Of a stretch of DNA of 64,000 nt, positions 7,150 to 45,850 are shown piece after piece. The notes under the pieces are model-generated. The model did not search any database and was not told where the DNA came from. It saw nothing but the letters and a program-made list of their open reading frames with translations. The first letter of the stretch is position 1. Each line of letters begins with the position of its first letter. Source of the DNA: Enterobacteria phage Aplg8; the sequence record NC_054902.1. The stretch is one strand, 5' to 3'. A program made the translations under genes and the position numbers.

Positions 7150-8088
7150 TTATTTAAATTGTTCAGTAACGTCTTCAACTACTTCGTATTGGCAGGTACG
7201 CATTTTAGCATCGTTGTAATCAATCGGAATTGATACTACATCACGTGGATGTACTTTAACTTTTACAACTCGGCTAGTTGAACTGCCAAAGTGACGAATA
7301 TAAGATTTAGAACACACATGCAGACCACGAGAACAAGTTTGTGTATCATCGTCATTCACACGAGTACGCGGCATTTTAACTACTTTACCAGGACTGTTAT
7401 CAAAGGTGTTTGAGTGACAGTCAAAGTAGTTGTCACGAACTACTTTCCAAGCATAGAAGTAACCATCTTCTGTAATTTCAATATCGTTTGCTACCAAGAA
7501 ATCAAAGAGTCGAGATACCGCTTTCTGGCTTGGGTTTTCCAGCAGATTTTCCAAGAACGGAAAATAAAATTCAAAGTTTTCACCTTTTTCCATCGAATCG
7601 AGAATACGATCAACTAAACCAGACCGTAATTCGATATTTTGATAGAACAAGCTTCCGCCTTCAATTCGAACATCGCCGGAAATATATTTTTCAACAGCGC
7701 GACGAACATTAATTTTTTGTGCCGCTTCTTCCAGCTTATCCGCTACAAGCAGATTAAGAATTTCCTGGAAGTTTGAATGAGTATTAGGAGTTGCGTTATA
7801 AGTTACACCGTCAACAGTAATTGAAATGAATTTTTTAGATGCATTCCAAATAATGTCAGATTTAGCAACTGGAGCAATAACTTCATCGCTATTAACTTTA
7901 ACTGTAATATCACCGCTAATAGTAACTTTAGGGTGTTTAGCTTCTTCAGCATTTTTCAAAACACGACGGATTGTGTCAACCGATACATCCTTCCAATAAG
8001 CTAATTCCTGCTGAGTGTAATTACCGCTTGAATACAGTTTAACAATTTCAGCTTGTTCGTTTTTGGTCAGGCATTTAATATTGTACAT
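7150..8088 (-). CDS. rIIB: rIIB protein
   Basis: 312 aa (T4 rIIB length); adjacent to rIIA; MYNIKCLTKNEQAEIVKLY N-terminus. Confidence 0.9.
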   Translation of the reverse strand: MYNIKCLTKNEQAEIVKLYSSGNYTQQELAYWKDVSVDTIRRVLKNAEEAKHPKVTISGDITVKVNSDEVIAPVAKSDIIWNASKKFISITVDGVTYNATPNTHSNFQEILNLLVADKLEEAAQKINVRRAVEKYISGDVRIEGGSLFYQNIELRSGLVDRILDSMEKGENFEFYFPFLENLLENPSQKAVSRLFDFLVANDIEITEDGYFYAWKVVRDNYFDCHSNTFDNSPGKVVKMPRTRVNDDDTQTCSRGLHVCSKSYIRHFGSSTSRVVKVKVHPRDVVSIPIDYNDAKMRTCQYEVVEDVTEQFK

Positions 8089-8099
8089 AATTTTCCTTA

Positions 8100-10277
8100 T
8101 TAGGCCGCAAGGGCCTTCATAGTTTTAGCGATTTGGGAAACTTCATCATCACTTAAAGAACTGCGATATCCGATGAAGTCGGAAACAATACGGAATTTCT
8201 TGGTAAACTCAGCAACCATTTTATCACTGTTTTTTGAAGCATTATTTGATAATACATCAAAAAGATTAGTTACTGTCCAGATGTCATGACCGATGGTATC
8301 TTTTCCACCATTAAAATATACACCGCGCAATGAACTAACTATATTAGCGAGTCGTGTATATTCTTCAGAAACTTCATCTGTACTGAAGTACTTCATCATA
8401 AAATCTAGTTCAGGATACTTGATAATTTTATCAATATATCGTTGAGCTGAACTTGAATAACCTACATACTTATCATAATCTACATCATCAAAAGCATCTA
8501 CATATAAATCACGCAAAGCTTCAAAAATACATTGGCACTGACCAAGCTCTTTTACCTTTTTCTGCAAAAGCGGACGAATAACATAAAATTCATTAATGCC
8601 AATAAGATTAGCCATACGAATCAAAATATTCATAGATGGATGACAAAGTGATGTAGTACCATCCATAGAGAAAATATCAGAACGATGCATATACGCTACA
8701 TAACCAGTAATTTCATCTGCTTCTGACGTAAGTGTAAATAGTTCCTCTTTTTCCCAGCGCCCGTCTTTAATTTCAAACTTAAATGCTGTAGCAGCTTTAG
8801 GACGAGGAGCTTTACTTTTAACTACCTTTGGAATATAGCTTTTAACTAAAGCTTCAATTTCTGACAAATAATGAATGTTAACTTCATCACTTTCAAACAT
8901 CGCCATAATATCAGGAAGTAAATCAATCTGCGATTCTACTTCTGGGTTAATAAACAAAAGGCGTTCGTTATGATGAATATTCAAAGTGTTATTAAATTCA
9001 CTATCATCTAACGCATGTGCTAATCCACGAACAATATTAACACGATTTTTAATATTATCAATAACGATATTAATTTTTGTTGTATTAATACCAAACAGAC
9101 GATAACTTGATGCAACGGCTGAAGTTTCATGACTTTGCTTAATGCGCTTCAGTCGAGGGTCAAGATTTACTTCATACACAACTCCTGCATTGCATAACTT
9201 ACTGTCAGGTTCAAACATGCTCTGCATCTTTTTATATGACAGATTTTTAGTCGTGAATTTGACTGAATTACTAATCATATAATCTCGAGCAGAATACCCC
9301 ATCTTCATTAATTCACGATATGTGTGACGAGGAGATGTAGATTCTTTAAATCGTTTTACATCTTCATTAAATGCTTTCTCACTAAGCTCTTTAACTCGTT
9401 CAATAATATTTTTACGAGTGCGATCATCTAATGAAAGAGCTTCACGTGATGGAGCAATATCAAGTGAACCCATTGGAAATTTAATGTAATTCACTTCATT
9501 ACGAATGCTTAGCCAGTTACGGTCTCTAATAACACCATCGATAGGATAAACAATACCACCATAGATAGCATATAATCCACCACGATCAGGCCAGTATCTT
9601 TCTGGATTTACACCGTAATAGTCATCAAAATCCGGAAAATAGTCAATTTCACGGTCAAGACCATTAATGATAGCCAAATCTTTGAACGGCCGCATGATAT
9701 AAGAAACTTCATAAGCAAAGTTTCTAAAGTCTTTTTCTTCAACTGGAACTACGATTTCAATACCAGTTTTATCATCTGGACCCATTTCTTTTACGAATGT
9801 AGGTTTAATCTGTGGTCCATCGCCATCCATGTAAGCTACATAACCACGAATTTCACCTTTATGATACGAAGTAATACTAAATGTATCAGTATAACTAAAC
9901 GGAGATTTAGAACCTAAACCAAACCCGCCAATAAAGTCATTAGATTCAGCCTTAGATGAACTGAAGTATGAATTATACAGACCAGGAGAATTATCATCAC
10001 CCTGAATATCAAAATCACTCATACCCGGACCAAAATCTCGACAAACAAATCGTGGATCTAATCGTCCTGGAACTTGAATGATAAATTTTTCAGGATTTCC
10101 ATTAAGTGCATGAGCATCAATCATGTTAGTAATCAATTCACGGACTACTGCGCGAATCTTGTTTGTATACAAATCAGATGACAGAATTTTAAATACTTTA
10201 GGATTTGCTGCGATGCTAAATGCTTTTGATTTAGAACCATTGCCAAGAATTGTTTCTTTTTCAGTGGTGATAATCAT
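8100..10277 (-). CDS. rIIA: rIIA protein
   Basis: 725 aa (T4 rIIA length); HATPase-like N-terminal domain; 11-nt rIIA-rIIB junction. Confidence 0.92.
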
Positions 10278-10546: not shown

Positions 10547-12366
10547 TACTGGCTCATCCATTCTTTGCGAAGGTCAGCATTATCTCCCATGAGCATTTCA
10601 AAAAGCTCTTTCCAGTTCTCAGGAAGTTTAACAACATCATATACTGGATTTTGAATCATCTCACGATATTCAGATTTTTCCAAAGAGCCAAGTCCTTTAA
10701 TATAACGGATGCTATGTTTAGGTAGAGCATCTTTGGCACTCTCATATTCAGCGACTGTATAAAACCATTCTTGTTTTTTACCGACCTGAGCGATGATTAC
10801 AGGAGTTTTGACAAAGCGAATTCGTCCTTGCTCAAACAATTCTGGCCAATTACTAAAAAACCCGAGCAGAGAAGGATAAATGCTTCCTAGACCATCATGG
10901 TCAGCATCAGTCATAATAGCAATATTGCGATAATTCAAGTTTTCAGCTTTTTCACCAAGAACTAGACCAGTGATTGCGCAAATATCAAATAGTTCTTTGT
11001 TTTTAAGCATATCGGCATATGACATACCCCAGCTATTAAGAACTTTACCGCGCAATGGATAACCACCATGAAGTTCTTTATCGCGAACATCAATAAGATA
11101 TCCGATAGCTGAATCACCCTCAGTCAAGAACAATGTAGTGTCAGCATCTTTACCGCAAAGATTCGCTTTGATATGTTTGTGAACCTTAGCTTTAGAAGCC
11201 TTTTTAGCTGCTTTAGTTTCTGCTGCTTTTTCTGCCGCCAATTTACGAGCCAAAGCAGCTTCAATAATCGGCATTAAAATTGCTTCATTATTTAGAATAG
11301 CGCGTGAAATCTTTTTAGCATCAAGTTGAATATGACTACGGATTTCACCAAATGGAGAAGTCAAACGCTCTTTAGTTTGAGAATCAAATCGCATGTTTTT
11401 CATATCACGAACAAACATAACGATAGTCAAACATTCTTTGACACGCGCTTTGGTTACATCAATTTTGAACTTACGTTTGATTTGTGGAATAAGGTCTTCA
11501 CAAATATCATCCATAACACAGTCAATGTGATGGCCACCATTCTTAGTATGAATGTTATTGACGTATGTTAATTGACGAAAACCATCCGGTGAACGACCAA
11601 CCGCAATAGAACAATTTTCTTGTTCTTGAACGATAGCATGTTCATCATATTGGCGTGCGTATTTCTTAAAATTACCCTGAACCTTTTTACCATTAAAGGT
11701 AAATTGAATATCAGGATAAACAACAGCAAGTGTTTGGAGACGATCTAGTGTAATGTCAAGATAAACTTGGGACAGCTCATTAGTTTCAAATGACATAAAA
11801 TCAGGAATGAAAGTAACACGAGTTCCTTTCCATTTTCCAGGAATATCTTCCCATGATTTATTTTCCATGCCATTTGAGCAACGAACTACAATATTATTTT
11901 GACCATCGCCAGTTTCACCGACAAACATCACAGAAAAAATGTTTGTCAAACTAGAACCAACACCGTTCATACCGCCAGTGACGCGTTCTTTATCATCACC
12001 GAAGTTACCACCTGCTTTTGGAATAGTCCATGCGGCAACAGGACCAGGAATTTCTTCACCGGTAGGTGTTTTAACCATCGCTTGTGGAATACCGCGACCG
12101 TTATCTTCAACTGTTACTTGATTGTTTTTAATAGTAACATTAATTTTATTTGCGAATTTAAACTTAGTACGAATACCTTCATCTACTGAGTTATCGATAA
12201 TTTCATCAATAAGCTTAACAAGACCAGGTACATACTGAACACTTTCCCATTTACCAAACAGAAAGCGCTCATGCATTTCATTAGCAGAAGAGCCAATGTA
12301 CATGCCACTACGCTTTTTGATATGTTCAATATCGCTCAGAATTTTAATTTCATTCTTAATCATCAC
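10546..12366 (-). CDS. 39: DNA topoisomerase II large subunit (GyrB-like), uninterrupted gene 39 (39+60 fused)
   Basis: 606 aa; N-terminal GHKL ATPase matches T4 gp39, C-terminal 120 aa match T4 gp60 (...NVAIMTDADHDGLGSIYPSLLGFFSNWPELF...) in one frame. Confidence 0.93.
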   Translation of the reverse strand: MMIKNEIKILSDIEHIKKRSGMYIGSSANEMHERFLFGKWESVQYVPGLVKLIDEIIDNSVDEGIRTKFKFANKINVTIKNNQVTVEDNGRGIPQAMVKTPTGEEIPGPVAAWTIPKAGGNFGDDKERVTGGMNGVGSSLTNIFSVMFVGETGDGQNNIVVRCSNGMENKSWEDIPGKWKGTRVTFIPDFMSFETNELSQVYLDITLDRLQTLAVVYPDIQFTFNGKKVQGNFKKYARQYDEHAIVQEQENCSIAVGRSPDGFRQLTYVNNIHTKNGGHHIDCVMDDICEDLIPQIKRKFKIDVTKARVKECLTIVMFVRDMKNMRFDSQTKERLTSPFGEIRSHIQLDAKKISRAILNNEAILMPIIEAALARKLAAEKAAETKAAKKASKAKVHKHIKANLCGKDADTTLFLTEGDSAIGYLIDVRDKELHGGYPLRGKVLNSWGMSYADMLKNKELFDICAITGLVLGEKAENLNYRNIAIMTDADHDGLGSIYPSLLGFFSNWPELFEQGRIRFVKTPVIIAQVGKKQEWFYTVAEYESAKDALPKHSIRYIKGLGSLEKSEYREMIQNPVYDVVKLPENWKELFEMLMGDNADLRKEWMSQ

Positions 12367-24148: not shown

Positions 24149-24339
24149 TTTGAATGATCTATAATTAATTTTAAATCTTCTTCACTGACAAAAATTTCGT
24201 CAGGACCTTCTATAACTTCAACCATACGAAGTTGATTAGTTAAGAGCTCACATACGAGCTCCTTGTTATAATCTTTAAATAGCTGGTCAATACGTTTCTT
24301 GCGGGCTTTCTTAAGCTGGCGTTTATTTAAACGAGCCAT
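24145..24339 (-). CDS. hypothetical protein (soc.2 position)
   Basis: 64-aa ORF. Confidence 0.5.
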   Translation of the reverse strand: MARLNKRQLKKARKKRIDQLFKDYNKELVCELLTNQLRMVEVIEGPDEIFVSEEDLKLIIDHSK

Positions 24340-24857
24340 TAATAGCCTCTGTCTTGACGAGCGAAGTTTTCAGCATTTTTCAGATAATAAAGTTTAAATA
24401 TTTCTTCAGCTGACATTCCAAGAGCAATGAATTTATTCATGAAAAAGTGAAATTGATCAATCAGTTCAAATTTAATTTCAAGTTGATCTTCAGGAGATAA
24501 ATCTTGAATTTTCTTGGATTGCATTTCAGAATAACGTTTCTTCCAAGGTTTCCATACAGCAGAAGCTTCTTTTTCACCATTACTCATACCACCAAGAGAA
24601 GTATATAGCTCGCGAGTTTCGTCTGCGATATAATCGTCTTGGTTTCGCAGCCAAGCAAGAACTTCTCCTGCAGTTTCAAGTGAATCAGGATGACGATTTG
24701 TTTCTGGTTTATCATTAGCCAAACGAATCTGTAAATGCCGCTGCATATCAAGCATAACCTGCAGTGGGTCAATATTGTGCATAATATTCTCAGCATATGC
24801 ACGATTTGCTTTATCAACACCTTCGATCAAATGAGCACATTCATTAAAGTAAGCCAT
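24339..24857 (-). CDS. 56: gp56 dCTPase/dUTPase (MazG-like NTP pyrophosphatase)
   Basis: 172 codons from MAYFNECAHLIEG; MazG-like motifs; C-terminus ...YYLKNAENFARQDRGY. Confidence 0.85.
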   Translation of the reverse strand: MAYFNECAHLIEGVDKANRAYAENIMHNIDPLQVMLDMQRHLQIRLANDKPETNRHPDSLETAGEVLAWLRNQDDYIADETRELYTSLGGMSNGEKEASAVWKPWKKRYSEMQSKKIQDLSPEDQLEIKFELIDQFHFFMNKFIALGMSAEEIFKLYYLKNAENFARQDRGY

Positions 24858-29239: not shown

Positions 29240-29602
29240 TTAAAAGAATTTAAACTTTTTCTTTGACCTTTTATTAAATGCATCTTGTAGTTGCATTGTA
29301 ATACATTTTTCTACATGAGGAGCTAACTCAGCTTTTCTTTCTTGGTCAAGAACAGCAAAGTCCATTACAACCTTTCCATCAACCCAATCCAGTTTAGTTA
29401 CATACACTATATGTGTAGAACCATCTTCTAGTTTAATGACAATCTCCTGGATAACATTTTCCATGGCAGATTTAATTATCTTAAGAGATTCATTAAAAAG
29501 ACGTTCTTTTCTTTCTTCTTCCCCCTCCGAAGAGGGGGATTCGTCGATAATTTCTAGATCTAAATCTAAATCATCTTTATTCATTAAATTCTTCCATATC
29601 AC
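29240..29602 (-). CDS. 40: gp40 head vertex assembly chaperone
   Basis: 120-aa ORF between uvsX and 41 as in T4; contains an internal UUCG hairpin. Confidence 0.65.
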   Translation of the reverse strand: MIWKNLMNKDDLDLDLEIIDESPSSEGEEERKERLFNESLKIIKSAMENVIQEIVIKLEDGSTHIVYVTKLDWVDGKVVMDFAVLDQERKAELAPHVEKCITMQLQDAFNKRSKKKFKFF

Positions 29603-30758
29603 TTAACTGTTCGAGGTCAGTTTCTAAATCAGCTGCTGATTTACTTTTACTTTCTGGAGATTTAAATTTTTCAACCTTTGAGTTAATCAATTCATCAACT
29701 TCAGCTTCAACAATTTCATTACTATCAATAGCACCTAATTGATAAGCACGTTTAATAGCATCTCGGAATGGTTGATGCTTAAATAAAGGACCCCAGAATG
29801 TAGTGCAGTTGGTATCTTTTGCACGCCAAGATTTTTCTTCGCGAATCATCTCGCCGGTTTCTTCGTCAAGAAATTCACGAGCATACCAGCCATTTTTAGG
29901 TTTTACTACAAATCCTAATTCTAGAGCCATATCTAACAATCCAGAATAAGGATCGATACCACCGTCAAATTTAACATCAATAAAGAATTTACTTTTTTCT
30001 TTAACGGTACGAGATTTTTCTACATTTAGAACAAATTGATACCCCTGAAGATCAGAACCATCTTTAATCTGGCGTTTACCGATAATGAATACAGTATCAG
30101 CCGAATACATTACGCCTGTACCACCTGTCATCACGGTTTTACTAAACATTTCAATTGTTTCAATTGTATGGTTAACCGCAACGCACGGAATATTTTTAAT
30201 GCTAAAATAAGGAGTAACAATACGGAATAATGACTTCAGTGATTTAGCACGAGTCATATCTGCCACAGATTTTTCATTCAAGGCATCTTCCGTTTCTTTC
30301 TTAGAAGCCATATTACCAATTGAGTCGATGAATACTATAACCTTTTCACCACGCTCAATAGCTTCAAGCTGATTCACCATATCAATTTTCAGCTGTTCAA
30401 CTGACTGGATTGGCGTATGAATTACTCGTTCCGGGTCAACTCCCATGGATCGCAAATAAGCTGGAGTAATACCAAATTCGCTATCATAGAATAGACAAAC
30501 CGCGTCAGGATATTTGTTCAAATACGCCGCAACCATAGTCAAAGACATATTTGATTTAAAGTGTTTAGAAGGACCTGCAAAAATAGTTAAACCAGACTGC
30601 ATGCCGCCATCAATCGCACCAGAAATAGCAATATTAAGCATTGGGATTTTTGTACGGATTACATCCTTTTCATTAAAGAATTTAGATGTAGTCAGTTCAG
30701 CAGTCATTTTAGAAGTGGAAGCTTTAATCAAACGGGATTTTAAATCTGCAATAGACAT
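29577..30758 (-). CDS. uvsX: UvsX recombinase (RecA-like)
   Basis: 393 aa; sequence ...KIPMLNIAISGAIDGGMQSGLTIFAGPSKHFKS... matches T4 UvsX. Confidence 0.93.
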   Translation of the reverse strand: MSIADLKSRLIKASTSKMTAELTTSKFFNEKDVIRTKIPMLNIAISGAIDGGMQSGLTIFAGPSKHFKSNMSLTMVAAYLNKYPDAVCLFYDSEFGITPAYLRSMGVDPERVIHTPIQSVEQLKIDMVNQLEAIERGEKVIVFIDSIGNMASKKETEDALNEKSVADMTRAKSLKSLFRIVTPYFSIKNIPCVAVNHTIETIEMFSKTVMTGGTGVMYSADTVFIIGKRQIKDGSDLQGYQFVLNVEKSRTVKEKSKFFIDVKFDGGIDPYSGLLDMALELGFVVKPKNGWYAREFLDEETGEMIREEKSWRAKDTNCTTFWGPLFKHQPFRDAIKRAYQLGAIDSNEIVEAEVDELINSKVEKFKSPESKSKSAADLETDLEQLSDMEEFNE

Positions 30759-30835
30759 TCATTTTTTCCATAGGCATCATTATATTTTCCTCACTGGTTA
30801 AAGATAGAGTAATTATAACACAATAAATTTAGGCA

Positions 30836-31684
30836 TTAATCAACTGCTATTGGATGAATAGCATTAAACTTATGAAATGCTTCTGATTTTTCTTTACGCG
30901 AAACACACATGCGAAGAACCTTTAATGGCTCGTCTTCTTCACCCAACGATTTTCGTTTTTCAATATTCGACGTTTTCCAACGAGCTTGCTCTGGAAACTC
31001 TCTATTGATTTGCTCAAGCGCTCTATTATGTTTAGAATTACTACGAATTGAACTACACCCACCAGGAGCTTGCGCTTTACCTGATACAACCAGATATTTG
31101 AACAAGGCCAAATGCGGATAACCTTGATTAATTAAATTGAGAAATGCATACATATCTTCGCACAAATCAATTTTTCCATACCCAATTTGTTCTGTCGTAA
31201 GTTTTCCGAGGTCATACCATGTATTCGTGAATCCATATGAATTTTCACGATAATTACCCCAAGATGAAGTAATTTTAAAAATAGGTAGACGAGCATGGCC
31301 ATGATAATACCCGCAATCCATGGCATCCTCAACATATTGAATCAATTCATAGAACTGTTCACGAGTCAATTGATTGACTTTATCTACGCAACGACGATCA
31401 TCTCTTTTTCGCATTGAACTCATACGAATAGTAGTATCATCGTCAATCATCCAGATTCGTTGGCCTGCATACATATCAGTAATTGCTTTACGAGTACCGG
31501 CAATTCCGTTTACATCATCAGGAATAGTTATAATTTTAGCTCTAGACCCATAGGCATCATAATAAGCTTTTTCTTCATGTTCACGCACTACAATATGGGG
31601 TTCATAATCAGTCGGAAACATATCAAGGGCAGAAACTGCCCCTACACGTTGATAACTTGGAATTACGAATTGAATCATTTCCAC
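30836..31684 (-). CDS. GT-A fold glycosyltransferase, probable beta-glucosyl-HMC-alpha-glucosyltransferase (T2/T6-type)
   Basis: 282 aa with DxD-like IDDDT motif; occupies uvsX-42 slot where T4 has 351-aa beta-gt. Confidence 0.6.
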   Translation of the reverse strand: MEMIQFVIPSYQRVGAVSALDMFPTDYEPHIVVREHEEKAYYDAYGSRAKIITIPDDVNGIAGTRKAITDMYAGQRIWMIDDDTTIRMSSMRKRDDRRCVDKVNQLTREQFYELIQYVEDAMDCGYYHGHARLPIFKITSSWGNYRENSYGFTNTWYDLGKLTTEQIGYGKIDLCEDMYAFLNLINQGYPHLALFKYLVVSGKAQAPGGCSSIRSNSKHNRALEQINREFPEQARWKTSNIEKRKSLGEEDEPLKVLRMCVSRKEKSEAFHKFNAIHPIAVD

Positions 31685-32415
31685 TCACCGTTATAATCTT
31701 TTTTCACAATATGAGTTTCGCCAGTATTCCACCAATGATCAACCAAGTAAAAATGACGAGAATATACATGAAGACTTCCAACATTCCATATAATAGAACC
31801 TGCTTTATACTGACGAGTTGAATCGCCGGCATTCAAATCAGATACTAATTTATCTAATACGTATTTTTGCCATGCATAATCATTACGGAATCCGAAGACC
31901 ACGTCATTTGAGCGCATGCTTACTACTGCATTGACTTTCTTATCACGAATCAGGTACTGTACTGTATTAGTACACATGAAATCTGACATACCATCTTTAT
32001 TGTAGTCAAATTGCATGGATGGACGAGTATAAATCATGATACCACGTCGAGAATCAGGATTTTGACCAAGTTCAGCTAAACACATATCATACTGGGCATA
32101 GTTATCTTCTGACCAAATAGCCCAACCATAATTCGAGTTAATTTCGCCTTTAGAAGATGCTACCTGCTGCCAAATCTTTGGTGTTTCGCCTGGAATATCT
32201 TTGACAAACAGACTTTGAGACTTGTACCATTCAAGTTCACGCTGAATGTATTCATCATTAAGAGCGCCAAAAATAAAGGGTTCATCTGCTACAAATGATG
32301 CGCCAATAATTTCAATAGTTTTAACACCGGTTTTATCAACTACGAAATCTTTTTCTTTTAATGCAAGCCCCAAATGAAGACGGATTTCTTCAACTGTCAT
32401 AGAGTCACTAATCAT
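31675..32415 (-). CDS. 42: gp42 dCMP hydroxymethylase
   Basis: 246 aa (T4 gp42 length); thymidylate-synthase-like fold. Confidence 0.88.
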   Translation of the reverse strand: MISDSMTVEEIRLHLGLALKEKDFVVDKTGVKTIEIIGASFVADEPFIFGALNDEYIQRELEWYKSQSLFVKDIPGETPKIWQQVASSKGEINSNYGWAIWSEDNYAQYDMCLAELGQNPDSRRGIMIYTRPSMQFDYNKDGMSDFMCTNTVQYLIRDKKVNAVVSMRSNDVVFGFRNDYAWQKYVLDKLVSDLNAGDSTRQYKAGSIIWNVGSLHVYSRHFYLVDHWWNTGETHIVKKDYNGEWK

Positions 32416-32568
32416 TTAAACCTCAATTGATACATTCATATTTAAATTGTAACAGTAATAAACCCCACCCTATGATAAGAGTTGGAATCATAGCAGGAAC
32501 TGTTACGCTATAGTATATACTTATTATAACCATCAAGATTAAAAGCAACACTGTTATAATTTTGCTTT

Positions 32569-32820
32569 TCATTCTTTCTCTCTGATGATAATTACCTGAT
32601 TTGGCTGTGCAGACTTTTTAGTTTCACCAGCAATTGACCAAATAAATGTAATAAACCAACCAATAATTGACCAGTTAAACAGTAAAGATGTGAAAAAGAT
32701 TCCTACTGTCGATTTTGACCCACGCATCAAGGCGATAAACCATGGAAGCATGTATATAATAATAGCCAACACACCTGAAACTAAAACCATAAAAATTGAA
32801 CCTGCTACTAAAGTTTCCAT
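32569..32820 (-). CDS. imm: Imm superinfection immunity membrane protein
   Basis: 83 aa with two TM helices; between 42 and 43 as in T4. Confidence 0.7.
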   Translation of the reverse strand: METLVAGSIFMVLVSGVLAIIIYMLPWFIALMRGSKSTVGIFFTSLLFNWSIIGWFITFIWSIAGETKKSAQPNQVIIIREKE

Positions 32821-32827
32821 GTTTTCC

Positions 32828-33208
32828 TCACTTAGTCAAATTTTTTACACATGAATTATAAGAATTCACTACATACTCCATCGGAGCATTTTTACCAGTA
32901 CGCCATTGGTAATTATTAGCCCAATTAGCCCAAATTTCGGCGCAGTAGTTTTCAATTTTTTCTTCGCGTGTAATTACATCAGAATTACGATATGCTTGAG
33001 CAGATTCATCTGGACGAATAGCTTCGTCAAAATTCGCCTGCATTTGTTCGACTGTTTGCTTTGGAGCTTCTTTATAACACTTGACATTAGGATTATAAAA
33101 TTTGCTTGAACAGTTTACAATTTTTCCTACATCAGACTGATTTACTACCGGTCCTTGAGCTATACAACCAGTAAGACCTAATGCAATAACCAAAATAGCG
33201 ATTTTCAT
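32828..33208 (-). CDS. putative lipoprotein
   Basis: 126 aa; signal peptide with lipobox LTGC. Confidence 0.55.
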   Translation of the reverse strand: MKIAILVIALGLTGCIAQGPVVNQSDVGKIVNCSSKFYNPNVKCYKEAPKQTVEQMQANFDEAIRPDESAQAYRNSDVITREEKIENYCAEIWANWANNYQWRTGKNAPMEYVVNSYNSCVKNLTK

Positions 33209-33218
33209 AATAATTTCC

Positions 33219-33455
33219 TCAAATGCAAGTAGTAATTACTCCAGTAGTGCTTATGCAGGTATTACCCATTTGCACACCTAAAGATCCATTTGTATTCACA
33301 TGAAGATTATCATCAATTTTAACTGATATTTTACCATTAGTGTGAATAACGGTGCTAGATTCAATCACAGGTTGAGTATCATTTTCAACACTAACAAATG
33401 GAACTGCTGCTAATGCAACTAAACAAACTGCTAAGCATCCCATAACAATTTTCAT
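33219..33455 (-). CDS. secreted/membrane-anchored small protein
   Basis: 78 aa from MKIVMGCLAVCLVALAAVPFVSV; N-terminal signal sequence. Confidence 0.5.
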   Translation of the reverse strand: MKIVMGCLAVCLVALAAVPFVSVENDTQPVIESSTVIHTNGKISVKIDDNLHVNTNGSLGVQMGNTCISTTGVITTCI

Positions 33456-33489
33456 TTTATTCTCCAAATCCGTATTAGTTGATAGTTGT

Positions 33490-33519
33490 ATAGTACCATG
33501 GAAGAACAGTCTTGTAAAC
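33490..33519 (-). promoter_or_regulatory. early promoter
   Basis: GTTTAC (33519..33514) - 18 bp - TACTAT (33495..33490); conserved leader. Confidence 0.55.
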
Positions 33520-33599
33520 AGTTTTGTGAAAATTTTTTAGGGAATTCTAAAGGTCCAGAATCATCTGTTTTTCATAAGTATAGATTTATATTACTTGTA

Positions 33600-33623
33600 T
33601 GAAAAAGGGACCCGGAGGTCCCC
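33600..33623 (-). terminator. terminator-like hairpin after gene 43
   Basis: gggacc-cgga-ggtccc stem-loop 33607..33622 followed on mRNA by UUUUUC. Confidence 0.5.
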
Positions 33624-33635
33624 AGATTTATTCTA

Positions 33636-36332
33636 TCAGCCAAACAGGAAGTCTAACGAAGCTTTTTCTTCATAGTCCATACCAGCCGATTCACACATAC
33701 CCGCAAGCGGTTTAACAAACGATTTTTGGAACAAAGTTGAGTAGTCAATCCAAGACAGTACGTCAGAACGAATTTCTTTTGGAAGTTCTGTGCCCGACGG
33801 CCAAGCAATACACTTGTCACCAAATGGATTTCCTTCACGTAATGGAAGAACCATTACTTTATTTCCATCCAAAATTGGAGCTACACCCAGACCATTAACA
33901 GCTCGACGATAAGTTAGCACACCACGAATATGGAACGGGCATTTAAATCCTGGCCAACCTTTATCATCATATTTCGCTATATCGTTCGCAGTTTTTACTT
34001 CAGCAATAACTTTATAGTCAAGTTGACGATATTCTTTCTCGAAGTTCTTGTAATATTCTTGGACAGACTCTTCACCTTCCTGAAGAATACGACGAATACT
34101 TTCTTCGAGAGCTTCTTGCACTGCTTTTGGTGTTGAACTCTGCTGAGTTTCCATACCCATGATTTTTAGATGCGGTTCAGCAAATCGCTTATCTTCCATA
34201 TCATAAACGTTCAGAGCATAACGCTTTTTCGCTTTCCAAAATCCGCCAACGCCTTTTGAACCAAGTGGAGGGCAAGAAATAGCTTCACGGTCCATATGCA
34301 TCAGATGCTCGCGGTTATTCATATAATCACATAACTCACGATATGCAACATCAATCATAGGTTCCATCTTTTTCTTACCGAACTGATTCATGAATTCAAC
34401 TAAATCGTTCTGCTCTTTGAATCGGTCAAGACCAACTTTTTCAATAACTTTATCTACACAAACATATACCGAATCAGTATCACCTGCTGCGATGAAATCT
34501 TCGCCATTAGTTCCACATACTTTATTCAGATACTCATTAATTTTACGAGCAATCCACTGAATACCGACTTGACCAAAAATTGTAATAGCAGTAGCATTTC
34601 GCAAATCATAGTAGCGGAAATGAATATTACCAAGAGCACCGTAAAGGCTGTTAATAAGAATTTTACGGTTCAGCTGATTTGTATTAGCAAGTGTAGCCGC
34701 TTTTTCACATTCTTCAATCAAACTATTGAGAACAGATTCAGTATAATTCGATAGTTCATTTAAGAAATCATCACTGAACTTAACATATCGTTCAACTTCA
34801 GGTTTAGTTGAACAAGACCCTGCGCCTTTCATAATAATCTTTTTAATAGCTTCGGCATTCATTTCTTCAGCGAACATTTTCTTTTTCCAATCTTTACGCT
34901 GGAAAAATACTTTAGCGATTTCCTTTGGAATGATACCTTCTTGATGCTTATCATACATCCATCCATTCGGAGAACAAGAATATTCATCACTCGGTTTAGG
35001 AGCTGTTCCTGCGATATATTCATGAATTGGATGAACTTTAAACTGCCCACGAATAGTCTCAGGACTAATGTTAACCTGACGAATAATGCTCGGATACAGA
35101 GACGTCAAGTCAAAACTCATAATATATCGACGAGCAATTGGTTTAGGTTCAAACACAAATGCACCCGGAAAACTCTGTTTAACATGCGAACCTTGTTGAG
35201 GAATAACCTTATGTTCACCTTTCAATGAGTTAAAAATAATAGCATCCCAGGTTTTAATAGGACTCATTACACCGGAAAAAGGCATTTTAGCGTAATAAGA
35301 CATACTTAAAACTAGATCGATAAACCCGCGAATTTTATCAATTGCTTGAACTGATTCTACGTCAATGATGTTATAACTAATGTATCGTTGATGATTAGTC
35401 TCACGAAGTTTATTAATAGGACCGTCGTATGGTAATTTACCTTTTTTGGTTTCATGTTGAGCAACTGATTCCAAAGAGAATGACGGCAAATTAGTAAAAG
35501 CGAATTTCTTGTACAAATCTAAATAATCAAGAATAGATACGCCATCAATAGAATAAATTTCTTTGCTACCGTACATATTTTGAATTAATTTAGATTTTAC
35601 TCGACCGATTGGAGAGAAGCGTTTCATACTACGTTCACCGAGAACCATTTTAACGCGATTCATGATATACGGAACGTCAAATCCCTCAATATTCCAACCG
35701 GTAAAAATAGCAGGTCGTTTCTGTTCCCAAAGATTAATATATTCCATGAGCATATCACGCTCATTATCGAATGGCATATAAATTACTCGGTCAAGAATTT
35801 CTTGAGGAACTTCATCACCACCTTCACAGTCAAGCTTAGCAGCTAACTTTGCATCCCATTTTGATACTGAACCATACATTGAATTCAAAAGGTCGAAAAC
35901 ATAAAAACGATCATCAATTGAATCGTAATGAGTGATAGCATCAATTTCATATTCAGCTTTCATTGGGTCAGGAAATTTATCACCAGTAACCTCAATGTCA
36001 CAGTTAGCTACACGAACAAATTTTCGGTCATAAACAATTTCTGAACCGTATGTATCACTGATATAAGCGAGTTTAAAATCGTTCATACCGAGAGCTTCGA
36101 GACCGATGTCTTCCATTCGTTTCATCCAATCTCGAGCATCTTTCATTGATGAAAATTTTTGAGGAGCGCAATTTTTACCATAGATGTCTTTGTACTTTGA
36201 CTCTTCCTTACAATGCCTAAACATAGTCGGAAGATATTCTACTTCACGAGTACGTTCCTTTCCGTTTTCATCAATATAACGTTCAACAATGTTATTTCCG
36301 ACTGTTTCGATAGAGATATAAAATTCTTTCAT
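33636..36332 (-). CDS. 43: gp43 DNA polymerase (family B)
   Basis: 898 aa (T4 gp43 length); MKEFYISIETVGNNIVERYIDENGKERTREVEYLPTMF N-terminus; exo and pol motifs (YGDTDS). Confidence 0.95.
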   Translation of the reverse strand: MKEFYISIETVGNNIVERYIDENGKERTREVEYLPTMFRHCKEESKYKDIYGKNCAPQKFSSMKDARDWMKRMEDIGLEALGMNDFKLAYISDTYGSEIVYDRKFVRVANCDIEVTGDKFPDPMKAEYEIDAITHYDSIDDRFYVFDLLNSMYGSVSKWDAKLAAKLDCEGGDEVPQEILDRVIYMPFDNERDMLMEYINLWEQKRPAIFTGWNIEGFDVPYIMNRVKMVLGERSMKRFSPIGRVKSKLIQNMYGSKEIYSIDGVSILDYLDLYKKFAFTNLPSFSLESVAQHETKKGKLPYDGPINKLRETNHQRYISYNIIDVESVQAIDKIRGFIDLVLSMSYYAKMPFSGVMSPIKTWDAIIFNSLKGEHKVIPQQGSHVKQSFPGAFVFEPKPIARRYIMSFDLTSLYPSIIRQVNISPETIRGQFKVHPIHEYIAGTAPKPSDEYSCSPNGWMYDKHQEGIIPKEIAKVFFQRKDWKKKMFAEEMNAEAIKKIIMKGAGSCSTKPEVERYVKFSDDFLNELSNYTESVLNSLIEECEKAATLANTNQLNRKILINSLYGALGNIHFRYYDLRNATAITIFGQVGIQWIARKINEYLNKVCGTNGEDFIAAGDTDSVYVCVDKVIEKVGLDRFKEQNDLVEFMNQFGKKKMEPMIDVAYRELCDYMNNREHLMHMDREAISCPPLGSKGVGGFWKAKKRYALNVYDMEDKRFAEPHLKIMGMETQQSSTPKAVQEALEESIRRILQEGEESVQEYYKNFEKEYRQLDYKVIAEVKTANDIAKYDDKGWPGFKCPFHIRGVLTYRRAVNGLGVAPILDGNKVMVLPLREGNPFGDKCIAWPSGTELPKEIRSDVLSWIDYSTLFQKSFVKPLAGMCESAGMDYEEKASLDFLFG

Positions 36333-39740: not shown

Positions 39741-40457
39741 ATGAATTATAAACTAATTTATGAAAAGTTAATCTCTAATGCTAAATCTCGAAAACTTGAT
39801 TGCTATACTGAATCTCATCACATTATACCACGCTGTTTAAATGGCAGCGATGATGCCTCAAACTTAGTAGATTTAACACCAGAAGAGCACTATGTAGCTC
39901 ATCAACTTTTAGTAAAAATTTATCCTTCTGAACCAAAATTAGTCTATGCTGCTAACATGATGACAGTTTCCACGAAATACGCTAAACGTAACAATAAAAC
40001 TTTCGGTTGGATTCGTCGTAAACTCTGGGAAATAGAAAAGAATAAAGAATTCTCCCAGGAGACACGAAAGAAAATGTCTGATGCAGTAGCTAATAAAGCA
40101 AGACTAACTTGTCCACATTGCGGTAAGTCCGGATTAAGCGGGAATATGAATCGATGGCATTTTGATAACTGCCCGAATCACCCTAATCCTAAAGTTAGAC
40201 CACCGATGTCTAAAGAACACAGAAATAATATCTCAAACGGGCTTAAAGCAATCATTCTTGAAGAAACATCCTGCGAATTCTGCGGAATGATAGGCAAGAA
40301 ATGCGTTATCGCAGCGCATAGAAATTTCTGCAAGAAAAATCCAAATGGACGCAAGAAAACTGAAAAGACTGGTACTTGCGTCCATTGTGGTAAAGTTACC
40401 ACTTTCGGAAATTTATCAAGATGGCATAATGATAACTGTAAATATAAACCTAGCTAA
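39741..40457 (+). mobile_element. free-standing HNH homing endonuclease gene (Mob-like), convergent with gene 46
   Basis: 238 aa; HNH motif ESHHIIPRCLNGSDDASNLVDLTPEEHYVAHQ; three C-terminal zinc-ribbon repeats CxxC...RWHxDNC; only long plus-strand ORF among minus-strand early genes. Confidence 0.8.
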
Positions 40458-42153: not shown

Positions 42154-43008
42154 TCACAATGAAGAAAATTCTTTAACTAAAGCCTGTAATGAAGCCTCTA
42201 TTGGATATCCATTCTTAACTAACATTTTCCTAAACATTACATGTTTAGGACGATTATATGATATCCACAATTCATACAATTTATCTTTATTATCCCAATG
42301 ATAGCCTTTTCGTCGAGATGCTATATGAGCTTTTCTAATCTCCGGATTTTTCCAACTAGCAGCTACTGAATTTGATATAGCTATTTTATATTCAGGTTTT
42401 GATAAAGCAGCACGAACAGCCTTTTGGTGTTTAATTTTATTTTCTTCGTTATTAAACCATTCCCTTGAAGCCATTGAAATTTTTTGTTTTGTTTTAAAAT
42501 TATTTAATCTTTCTTTATTATCTTTCCTATTTTTTGCTACTGAAAAATATTTTAATGCCCTTTCTCTAGCAGCATTTCTATTTTGCGGATTTGAATAATA
42601 CTGTTGAAGCCTTTTTGATATTGTGTCACTTACATCTTGTTTTATAAAACTATATTCAGCAGCTATTAAATCAACTTCGGCTAAAGATAAATTTTTATAT
42701 GTTTTTCCTGACATCATTCTATTTAAAGCATTTAGCATTTTTCCATTTTTACCTTTTGCTAATAAGAAGTGTGCTTTAAAATGATTAAAATGACTTAAAT
42801 TAACTAAATTCCATGTAGATTTTAAATATTCAGGAAATATTGATTTAGGAAGCACGTGGTGTGCTTCCGTTTTACCTGGAGTTTTAACAGTTGAATTCAC
42901 AGAAATAAAATTAATGTAAGACTTGGCGTCTTCTTCACTCAACGCTAATTTTTCAACTAATTCCTTTATTAAAAATTCATCATTAATGTCAAGTTTAAAA
43001 TTCTTCAC
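42154..43008 (-). mobile_element. HNH homing endonuclease gene with NUMOD-like repeats
   Basis: 284 aa; HNH-like TEAHHVLPKS...NLVNLSHFNHFKAH; C-terminal repeated basic helix motifs; inserted between 46 and 47. Confidence 0.7.
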
Positions 43009-44631: not shown

Positions 44632-44649
44632 AAAGGGCCGAAGCCCTTT
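44632..44649 (-). other. UUCG-tetraloop RNA hairpin overlapping agt stop
   Basis: aaagggc-cgaa-gcccttt inverted repeat; U-rich on both strands. Confidence 0.6.
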
Positions 44650-45850
44650 ATTTTGTAATAATGTCAAACTGTTCTTTAAAGCAGAAGCTTGAATCTTGAT
44701 GCTGATACAAAAATTCATAAGCTTTTTCGCGTTCACGGTCATAAAGAGTTCGGTCAGATGACAGTTCTTTAATACGTTCAAACGTTGATTCCATGTCATT
44801 TTCATCAAACCAAATGATACCGCTATCATGCGAGGTCAAAGGAGTATTATCAACACGGAATTTTAAATTTTCGCCAGTAGATTTCCAAAATACCGGAATT
44901 GTTCCACATGCACCAAGCTCGAGATGAGTATATTCTAAAGAACGTTGTAGATATTTTTTATCCAACTTACTCAACTGATAACCAAATCCGGATTTACTCA
45001 TGCGTTCAAGCATTTCGCTATTTACATAACGGTCAAGAATTTGCGTTGGCAAATTAGGAGCAATTTTAATTTGGTCTACTTGATGAAGACGATAATACTC
45101 GTATGGAATTCCTTTTTCTTTAATAGGAATGAACGCTGGAGAACGTTCCAGACCTTCCATAATAGTACTTAGTCCTGCAGGTTTAAGATGTTTTTCATGA
45201 AAATCAAACATCTGATAAAAACCTTTCCATGTAGTCGTACGACCAATCCAACGGTTGATATTCATGTTAATTTCAGAAACATCTTTCCAGTAGGTTGACC
45301 GAACCTTCGCAATATCCATAGGAGGCTGAAAGTTATATACTGTCGGTGCTTCTTCAATATCATCAAACAGAGAAACTGTTTCAGGATACCATTCTTTCAT
45401 CAGAACTTTATTAAAATCACCATTATCAGAATGGCTAAAAATAACATCAGCTCGACGAACAGTTTCTTCTAATCCCAAATTTCGGCGCAAAGAAAGAGAA
45501 GAATGGTCATGTTGATAAACTACAACACGAACCGAAGGTTTAATGTTATCAATAATTTTTTTATAGTTATTAATAGTGTCTTCTTCAACCGAAGTAGCAG
45601 GAACTGAATTGATAATTAGAATATCACAATCATTTACCAGCTTAAGTGTTTTATCATATTCTTTTGCCAATAAAACCGGAATTGAAAATGATTTATAATC
45701 ATGCGCGCAATTACGAGTAAATGATTTATCTTTAGCATAAACCAAAGTTACTTCATGACCATTCTTAATAAACCAATCACGTTGCTCAAGAGAAAATTTA
45801 GTTACACCACAACCTTCAAGACCTCGAGCCATAAAAATACATACTTTCAT
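44648..45850 (-). CDS. agt: alpha-glucosyltransferase
   Basis: 400 aa (T4 alpha-gt length); position between 47 and 55. Confidence 0.85.
   Translation of the reverse strand: MKVCIFMARGLEGCGVTKFSLEQRDWFIKNGHEVTLVYAKDKSFTRNCAHDYKSFSIPVLLAKEYDKTLKLVNDCDILIINSVPATSVEEDTINNYKKIIDNIKPSVRVVVYQHDHSSLSLRRNLGLEETVRRADVIFSHSDNGDFNKVLMKEWYPETVSLFDDIEEAPTVYNFQPPMDIAKVRSTYWKDVSEINMNINRWIGRTTTWKGFYQMFDFHEKHLKPAGLSTIMEGLERSPAFIPIKEKGIPYEYYRLHQVDQIKIAPNLPTQILDRYVNSEMLERMSKSGFGYQLSKLDKKYLQRSLEYTHLELGACGTIPVFWKSTGENLKFRVDNTPLTSHDSGIIWFDENDMESTFERIKELSSDRTLYDREREKAYEFLYQHQDSSFCFKEQFDIITK

Follow-up and report, generated by a model that had tools for sequence, protein, structure and literature searches.

A glycosyltransferase gene of the T2/T6 type in the uvsX-42 interval of Enterobacteria phage Aplg8

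Introduction

The stretch of DNA analysed here, hereafter the window, comprises 64,000 nt of Enterobacteria phage Aplg8 (NC_054902.1) and, taken as a whole, shows about 97% identity to genomes of Tequatrovirus, among them KMB23, KIT03, RB51/RB68 and T6. Between uvsX and gene 42, the place of the 351-aa β-glucosyltransferase (β-gt) in T4, it carries an open reading frame that a first-pass annotation had read as a different kind of glycosyltransferase. This raises the question of which enzyme occupies the interval, and of which modification the DNA of this phage would carry as a result.

In the published two-step pathway, α-gt places an α-glucose on 5-hmC and a second enzyme, βα-gt, adds a β-1,6 glucose to yield gentiobiosyl-hmC (PMC13216743, PMC6024577, PMC11078745). 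The α-gt and ba-gt genes occur together, without b-gt, in T2, T6 and RB3, 5, 6, 7, 9, 10, 14, 27, 32, 33, 51 and 68 (PMC6024577), and the T4-like pair of α-GT and β-GT has been found in only 6 of 753 genomes (PMC13216743). The combination of α-gt with a TAGT enzyme is the majority arrangement in T4-like coliphages, and the α plus β pair of T4 is rare.

Position, start codon and genomic context of the gene

The sole long reading frame of the interval in the ORF list spans positions 30836..31684 on the minus strand, with 282 codons counted from a GTG. An ATG at 31678-31676, two codons inside this frame, defines an 843-nt coding sequence (30836..31678, minus strand) with a 280-aa product, here termed βα-gt (also ggt or TAGT); its assignment draws on the ORF list, PF20691, PHROG 842, near-identical relatives and an ATGA overlap. 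The overlap is formed by this ATG and the TGA stop of gene 42 (31677-31675). The purine-rich GGTGAGTGGAA precedes the ATG, the minus-strand letters around the start reading ...AACGGTGAGTGGAAATGATTCAA..., and the same 280-aa start is annotated in T2, AR1, Solly, CP, EL, Geo and BGP. Because of the ATGA overlap, the upstream purine-rich element and the shared annotation, the ATG at 31678 is taken as the most likely start and preferred over the GTG at 31684, 282 aa being a mechanical ORF length. The earlier description of a 282-aa protein in the uvsX-42 slot hence holds for the slot and for the intact reading frame but not for the length, which is more likely 280 aa.

Upstream of βα-gt lies gene 42 (31675..32415, minus strand), encoding a dCMP hydroxymethylase (PF00303) 97% identical to T4 gp42, and the ATGA overlap, as read from the sequence, couples translation of the two genes. 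On the downstream flank lies the uvsX recombinase gene (29577..30758, minus strand; PF21134, T4_UVSX_C, and PF00154, RecA), which is outside the modification system and only bounds the slot. The order 42, βα-gt, uvsX is common to the window, AR1, T6, T2, BGP, EL, Geo, Solly and CP.

The 77 nt that separate the βα-gt stop codon from the start of uvsX (30759-30835, minus strand) include AATGCCTAAATTTATTGTGTTATAAT, which resembles a T4 middle promoter in having a MotA-box-like TGCCTAA and, after it, an extended -10 element. A promoter scan of positions 30600-33700 returned 17 promoter-like matches against a shuffled expectation of 13.2 ± 3.2, which is not above expectation, and no promoter is claimed. 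The sole clear feature in a terminator scan of the same region was a terminator-like hairpin at 33606-33623 (both strands), after gene 43 (DNA polymerase). This strong GC-rich hairpin, GGGACCCGGAGGTCCC, is followed by a T-run and looks like an intrinsic terminator bounding an imm.1-imm-42-βα-gt transcription unit.

Family assignment and distribution

The βα-gt protein matches the TET-associated glycosyltransferase family PF20691 with 38.9 bits (gathering threshold 27.5), residues 5-209 aligning to positions 2-205 of the 205-position model. This was its sole match in a Pfam scan at E ≤ 10, and precomputed annotation assigns the same domain to 11 of its homologues. The protein also matches PHROG 842 (phrog_842, "beta-glucosyl-HMC-alpha-glucosyltransferase") over residues 2-277 with E = 2e-89. 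It differs at a single position of 280 from the proteins of AR1 and CP (279/280 each), and comparison with the T2/T6 enzyme returned the expected glycosyltransferase homology, with 278/280 identical residues in both T2 records checked and 276/280 aligned codons in T6 (MH550421). The earlier claim of a GT-A nucleotide-sugar transferase of the T2/T6 kind is borne out by the family matches and by this identity.

Megablast searches recovered 473 phage records in which the gene is 90-99% identical in nucleotide sequence; many are labelled beta-glucosyl-HMC-alpha-glucosyltransferase, and they come from T-even phages of Escherichia, Shigella, Yersinia, Salmonella and Citrobacter. With tblastn, 687 phage records matched; beyond the megablast set these include about 200 from phages of Klebsiella and Enterobacter, with 60-80% identity, and a few more distant ones. 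The gene is very probably a T2/T6-type β-glucosyl-HMC-α-glucosyltransferase, a TAGT enzyme of GT-A fold that adds the second glucose onto α-glucosyl-hmC. The present analysis established the identity of the gene, its fold class, the conservation of the motif, the synteny and which partner genes are present or absent; the chemistry, the knockout phenotype and the LC-MS of a phage with an identical enzyme (Solly) were taken from published work.

T4 β-gt, on the other hand, shows no detectable similarity to the βα-gt protein (BLASTP, best E = 2.2), its Pfam family (PF09198) has no match in this protein (Pfam scan, E ≤ 10), and no homologue of it was found in the 64-kb window (tblastn, best E = 1.5). 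These results agree with the initial view that the slot holds a protein other than the 351-aa enzyme of T4.

Modification genes in the window

The first-pass annotation had also taken α-gt to be present, and the gene lies at 44648..45850 (minus strand), encoding a GT-B DNA α-glucosyltransferase (PF11440, E = 4e-237) 91% identical to T4 α-gt and identical at 399 of 400 positions to both the Solly and the T2 α-gt. The window further encodes a dCTPase/dUTPase, gene 56 (24339..24857, minus strand), whose product has 98% identity with gp56 as annotated in T6. The modification gene set of the 64-kb window hence consists of gp42, gp56, α-gt and βα-gt, without β-gt, and no long ORF that could represent dam lies between genes 56 and 61.

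In the proposed pathway, gp56 would keep unmodified C out of phage DNA and gp42 would make the hm-dCMP precursor, so that with gp56 and a dNMP kinase encoded elsewhere hmC would replace C. The α-gt enzyme would then move glucose from UDP-glucose to 5-hmC in α linkage, creating the acceptor for βα-gt, which would add a second glucose, with inversion, to the 6-OH of the α-glucose to form β-1,6-glucosyl-α-glucosyl (gentiobiosyl) hmC.

Two further ORFs, at 39741-40457 (plus strand, 238 aa) and 42154-43008 (minus strand, 284 aa), sit as insertions within the set of replication and recombination genes around 46 and 47. Both carry His-rich HNH-like motifs, such as 'ESHHIIPRCL'; the Pfam HNH model scored 16.9 bits on the former, below cutoff, and did not match the latter. 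In T6, an ORF of equal size (T6ORF054) adjoins gene 46. The two inserted ORFs are probably mobile genes of the homing-endonuclease type.

Acidic motif, predicted fold and candidate catalytic residues

The acidic IDDDT motif reported in the first-pass annotation was located at 31433..31447 (minus strand). It corresponds to I78-D79-D80-D81-T82 in 280-aa numbering (residues 80-84 in the 282-aa reading), a DXD-type motif after β-strand 4, and its three aspartates are invariant across 10 homologues, down to 32% identity, in two alignments. DXD motifs bind a divalent cation and the UDP diphosphate in GT-A enzymes generally, and D79-D81 are presumed to do so here; the DDD motif would thereby hold the metal and the UDP diphosphate during transfer. 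By likeness to the "ED" motif of GT2 enzymes, we infer that the invariant pair E174-D175 is a candidate for the catalytic base.

A PDB sequence search with the βα-gt protein returned nothing meaningful (best E = 1.6, an unrelated PNPOx-like protein), indicating that members of the TAGT family are without a solved structure, and the fold was for this reason read from a predicted model. An AlphaFold2 model built from a 10-sequence alignment, with the T2 sequence excluded, reached a pTM of 0.72 and a mean pLDDT of 70. The nucleotide-binding N-terminal half is modelled confidently (pLDDT 84-95 over residues 1-80), with a β-strand at 74-77 directly before D79-D80-D81, and residues 126-151 and 203-211 are poorly defined loops (pLDDT < 50). 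The model presents a single Rossmann-like α/β/α domain with structural likeness to solved GT-A enzymes, which is consistent with a GT-A fold. Model confidence is moderate, and the proposed catalytic residues are hence candidates.

Predicted modification pattern and alternative readings

Published analyses tie this gene content to gentiobiosylated DNA. Deletion of ba-gt in T6 leaves α-glucosyl-hmC only and abolishes gentiobiosyl-hmC (PMC11078745), and phages of the Durham collection with α-GT and TAGT contain gentiobiosyl-mdC and no β-glucosyl-mdC by HPLC/MS (PMC13390438). In Solly and CP, DNA contains about one third 5-hmdC and two thirds α-gentiobiosyl-mdC, and in EL, BGP and Geo the hm : glc : gent ratio is roughly 1:2:2 (PMC13390438). 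In T2, 70% is reported to be α-glucosyl and 5% gentiobiosyl (PMC11078745).

Because the βα-gt protein is identical to that of Solly at 280 of 280 positions and the α-gt protein at all but one of 400, we infer that Aplg8 DNA would follow the T6/Solly pattern rather than that of T2. The predicted composition is roughly two thirds gentiobiosyl-hmC and one third bare 5-hmC; mono-α-glucosyl-hmC would be scarce and β-glucosyl-hmC absent. Gene identity, synteny, the α-gt partner and the LC-MS of Solly thus lend support to the T2/T6-style α-glucosyl plus gentiobiosyl modification suggested at the outset.

The presence of the gene does not by itself fix the amount of disaccharide, since near-identical T2 enzymes yield only about 5% gentiobiosyl-hmC. 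It is therefore conceivable that the Aplg8 orthologue works as poorly as that of T2, leaving mostly mono-α-glucosyl-hmC and a few percent gentiobiosyl-hmC. The T2 system matches the window at 278/280 and 399/400 positions, yet gives this low yield (PMC11078745), and over the 100 nt examined at the start codon T2, Solly and the window do not differ. We nevertheless consider a poorly working enzyme unlikely, given that the window enzyme is the same as that of Solly, with its two thirds gentiobiosyl-mdC, that it keeps Arg11, which in the family alignment is replaced only in T2 (by His), and that the exact T2 haplotype around codon 11 was found in only 8 of 440 records, all of T2 or SV76.

A TAGT-family transferase with a donor or acceptor unlike those of the T2/T6 enzyme, using for instance another sugar or transferring directly to 5-hmC, would find precedent in the diversity of the family, in which solitary TAGTs occur in phages without α/β-GT and some TAGTs are paired with a β-GT (PMC13216743). 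Such a specificity is highly improbable, since the protein is 99-100% identical to its counterparts in T2, AR1 and Solly, phages with gentiobiosyl-hmC, and shares with them the synteny and the α-gt partner; the identity to the T2 and Solly enzymes likewise rules out an RB69-type arabinosyl or other-sugar transferase. For a chance open frame or a decayed pseudogene nothing was found beyond the caveat that translation probably does not begin at the GTG at 31684. The frame is intact and full-length, retains every invariant residue of the family, has conserved counterparts in hundreds of phages and is linked to gene 42 by translational coupling; the probability of this reading is negligible, sequence homology already refuting it. 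The T2/T6-type βα-gt with a Solly-like product hence remains the preferred reading.

Allele differences among related phages

The T2 gene was compared in PV958097 (locus piece 2007-2849) and AP018813 (locus piece 7283-8125; both in piece numbering) with window positions 30836-31678. Where the window encodes Arg11 and Pro251, both T2 records encode His11 and Ser251, and apart from R11H and P251S the two-enzyme system of T2 differs from that of the window and Solly by one conservative change in α-gt. With T2 excluded, every sequence of the family alignment has Arg11, which lies in the loop following β1, a nucleotide-contacting region of GT-A enzymes. The count of the T2 codon-11 haplotype given above refers to a phage GenBank collection; scans of IMG/VR returned no match for His11 and three for Arg11, too few to be informative.

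From sequence comparison, T2 βα-gt may be a hypomorph. A broader and tentative proposal, which we rate as possible but rather less than even in likelihood, is that the βα-gt allele, rather than α-gt or expression, determines how much gentiobiosyl-hmC is made, with the Arg11/Pro251 form fully active and the R11H and/or P251S form of T2 hypomorphic. If true, it would explain a 60-year-old difference between T2 and T6, and the modification pattern, hence the sensitivity to Brig1 and BapA, would become predictable from the βα-gt sequence. Whether or not it is true, the window gene stays an ordinary member of its family.

Both public T6 records carry lesions in this gene that the window does not share. 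In MH550421 (locus piece 10827-11669), one of the four codon differences is an amber stop, TAG replacing Gln10, and the CDS is annotated from an internal Met (261 aa). In AP018814 (locus piece 635-1474), a 3-nt deletion removes one GAT of (GAT)3 and turns IDDDT into IDDT. Such lesions are odd for a phage known for 72% gentiobiosyl-hmC and may be laboratory-stock mutations or sequencing errors. BGP, EL and Geo share a βα-gt allele of their own with seven substitutions (I50V, M89I, R95K, C97R, V101I, A202S and Q203H). The α-gt comparison covered EL and Geo, in which the protein is of T4 type (four differences between EL and T4; 33-34 from the window). The combinations of βα-gt and α-gt alleles seem to track the modification ratios, BGP, EL and Geo being intermediate.

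Implications and comparison with known systems

The βα-gt of Aplg8 is an already known enzyme at a known place, and nothing in the window gene is new: the gene and its fold class, how widely it occurs and the knockout phenotype have all been published. The value of the analysis lies in a correct annotation and in a phenotype prediction, α-gentiobiosyl-hmC of the T6/Solly type versus the mix of α- and β-monoglucosyl-hmC of T4. Loss of ba-gt renders T6 more susceptible to the glycosylase Brig1, for which the DNA of the mutant becomes a substrate in vitro (PMC11078745); the glucosidase BapA frees glucose from T6(Δg-gt) DNA and yields only background from wild-type T6 DNA (bioRxiv 10.64898/2026.02.25.707755). 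The disaccharide would hence alter which modification-dependent defences act, blocking the action of Brig1 on α-glucosyl-hmC, as in vitro, and leaving BapA no detectable glucose to release, as from gentiobiosyl-rich T6 DNA, and enzymes of the GmrSD/BrxU type would still restrict gentiobiosyl-hmC DNA. This link between the gentiobiosyl pattern and an altered Brig1/BapA sensitivity, with GmrSD/BrxU restriction persisting, could be useful when T-even phages are selected or engineered for therapy or as sources of restriction-resistant DNA.

T4 β-gt is the positional analogue of βα-gt, lying in the same uvsX-42 interval, using UDP-glucose as donor and forming a β linkage onto phage DNA. The two sequences are nonetheless unrelated, T4 β-gt being a GT-B enzyme (PDB 1JG7, PMC13216743) of PF09198 and βα-gt a GT-A enzyme, and the acceptors differ, bare 5-hmC for the former and α-glucosyl-hmC for the latter. 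T4 also has segA between uvsX and β-gt, whereas in the window uvsX directly follows βα-gt; the only trace of segA in the window was one weak 32-residue tblastn match (E = 0.006, 42202-42297), not accepted as a homologue. GT-A enzymes of the GT2 family, such as TarP (6H1J) and bacterial cellulose synthase, are 9-16% identical to βα-gt in sequence and act on glycan, lipid or teichoic acid, in contrast to the DNA-borne glucose that serves βα-gt as acceptor.

Within the TAGT family, βα-gt matches the full PF20691 model above its gathering threshold and belongs to a T-even subgroup with a C-terminal extension of about 70 residues (residues ~210-280) relative to that model. This subgroup presumably acts with hmC made by gp42, not with hmC made by TET/JBP. 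The T2/T6 enzyme (ba-gt / ggt; UniProt Q06717 and Q06718 according to PMC6024577) is the same gene in the same slot, with the same α-gt partner and the same Pfam and PHROG families. In its lack of dam the window resembles T6, for which the record annotates none in the stretch from gene 56 to gene 61; T2, EL, BGP and Geo differ from it in this respect (PMC13390438). The closest counterpart is Solly (OY720021), in which Solly_044 encodes the identical βα-gt protein from a gene 98.2% identical at the nucleotide level.
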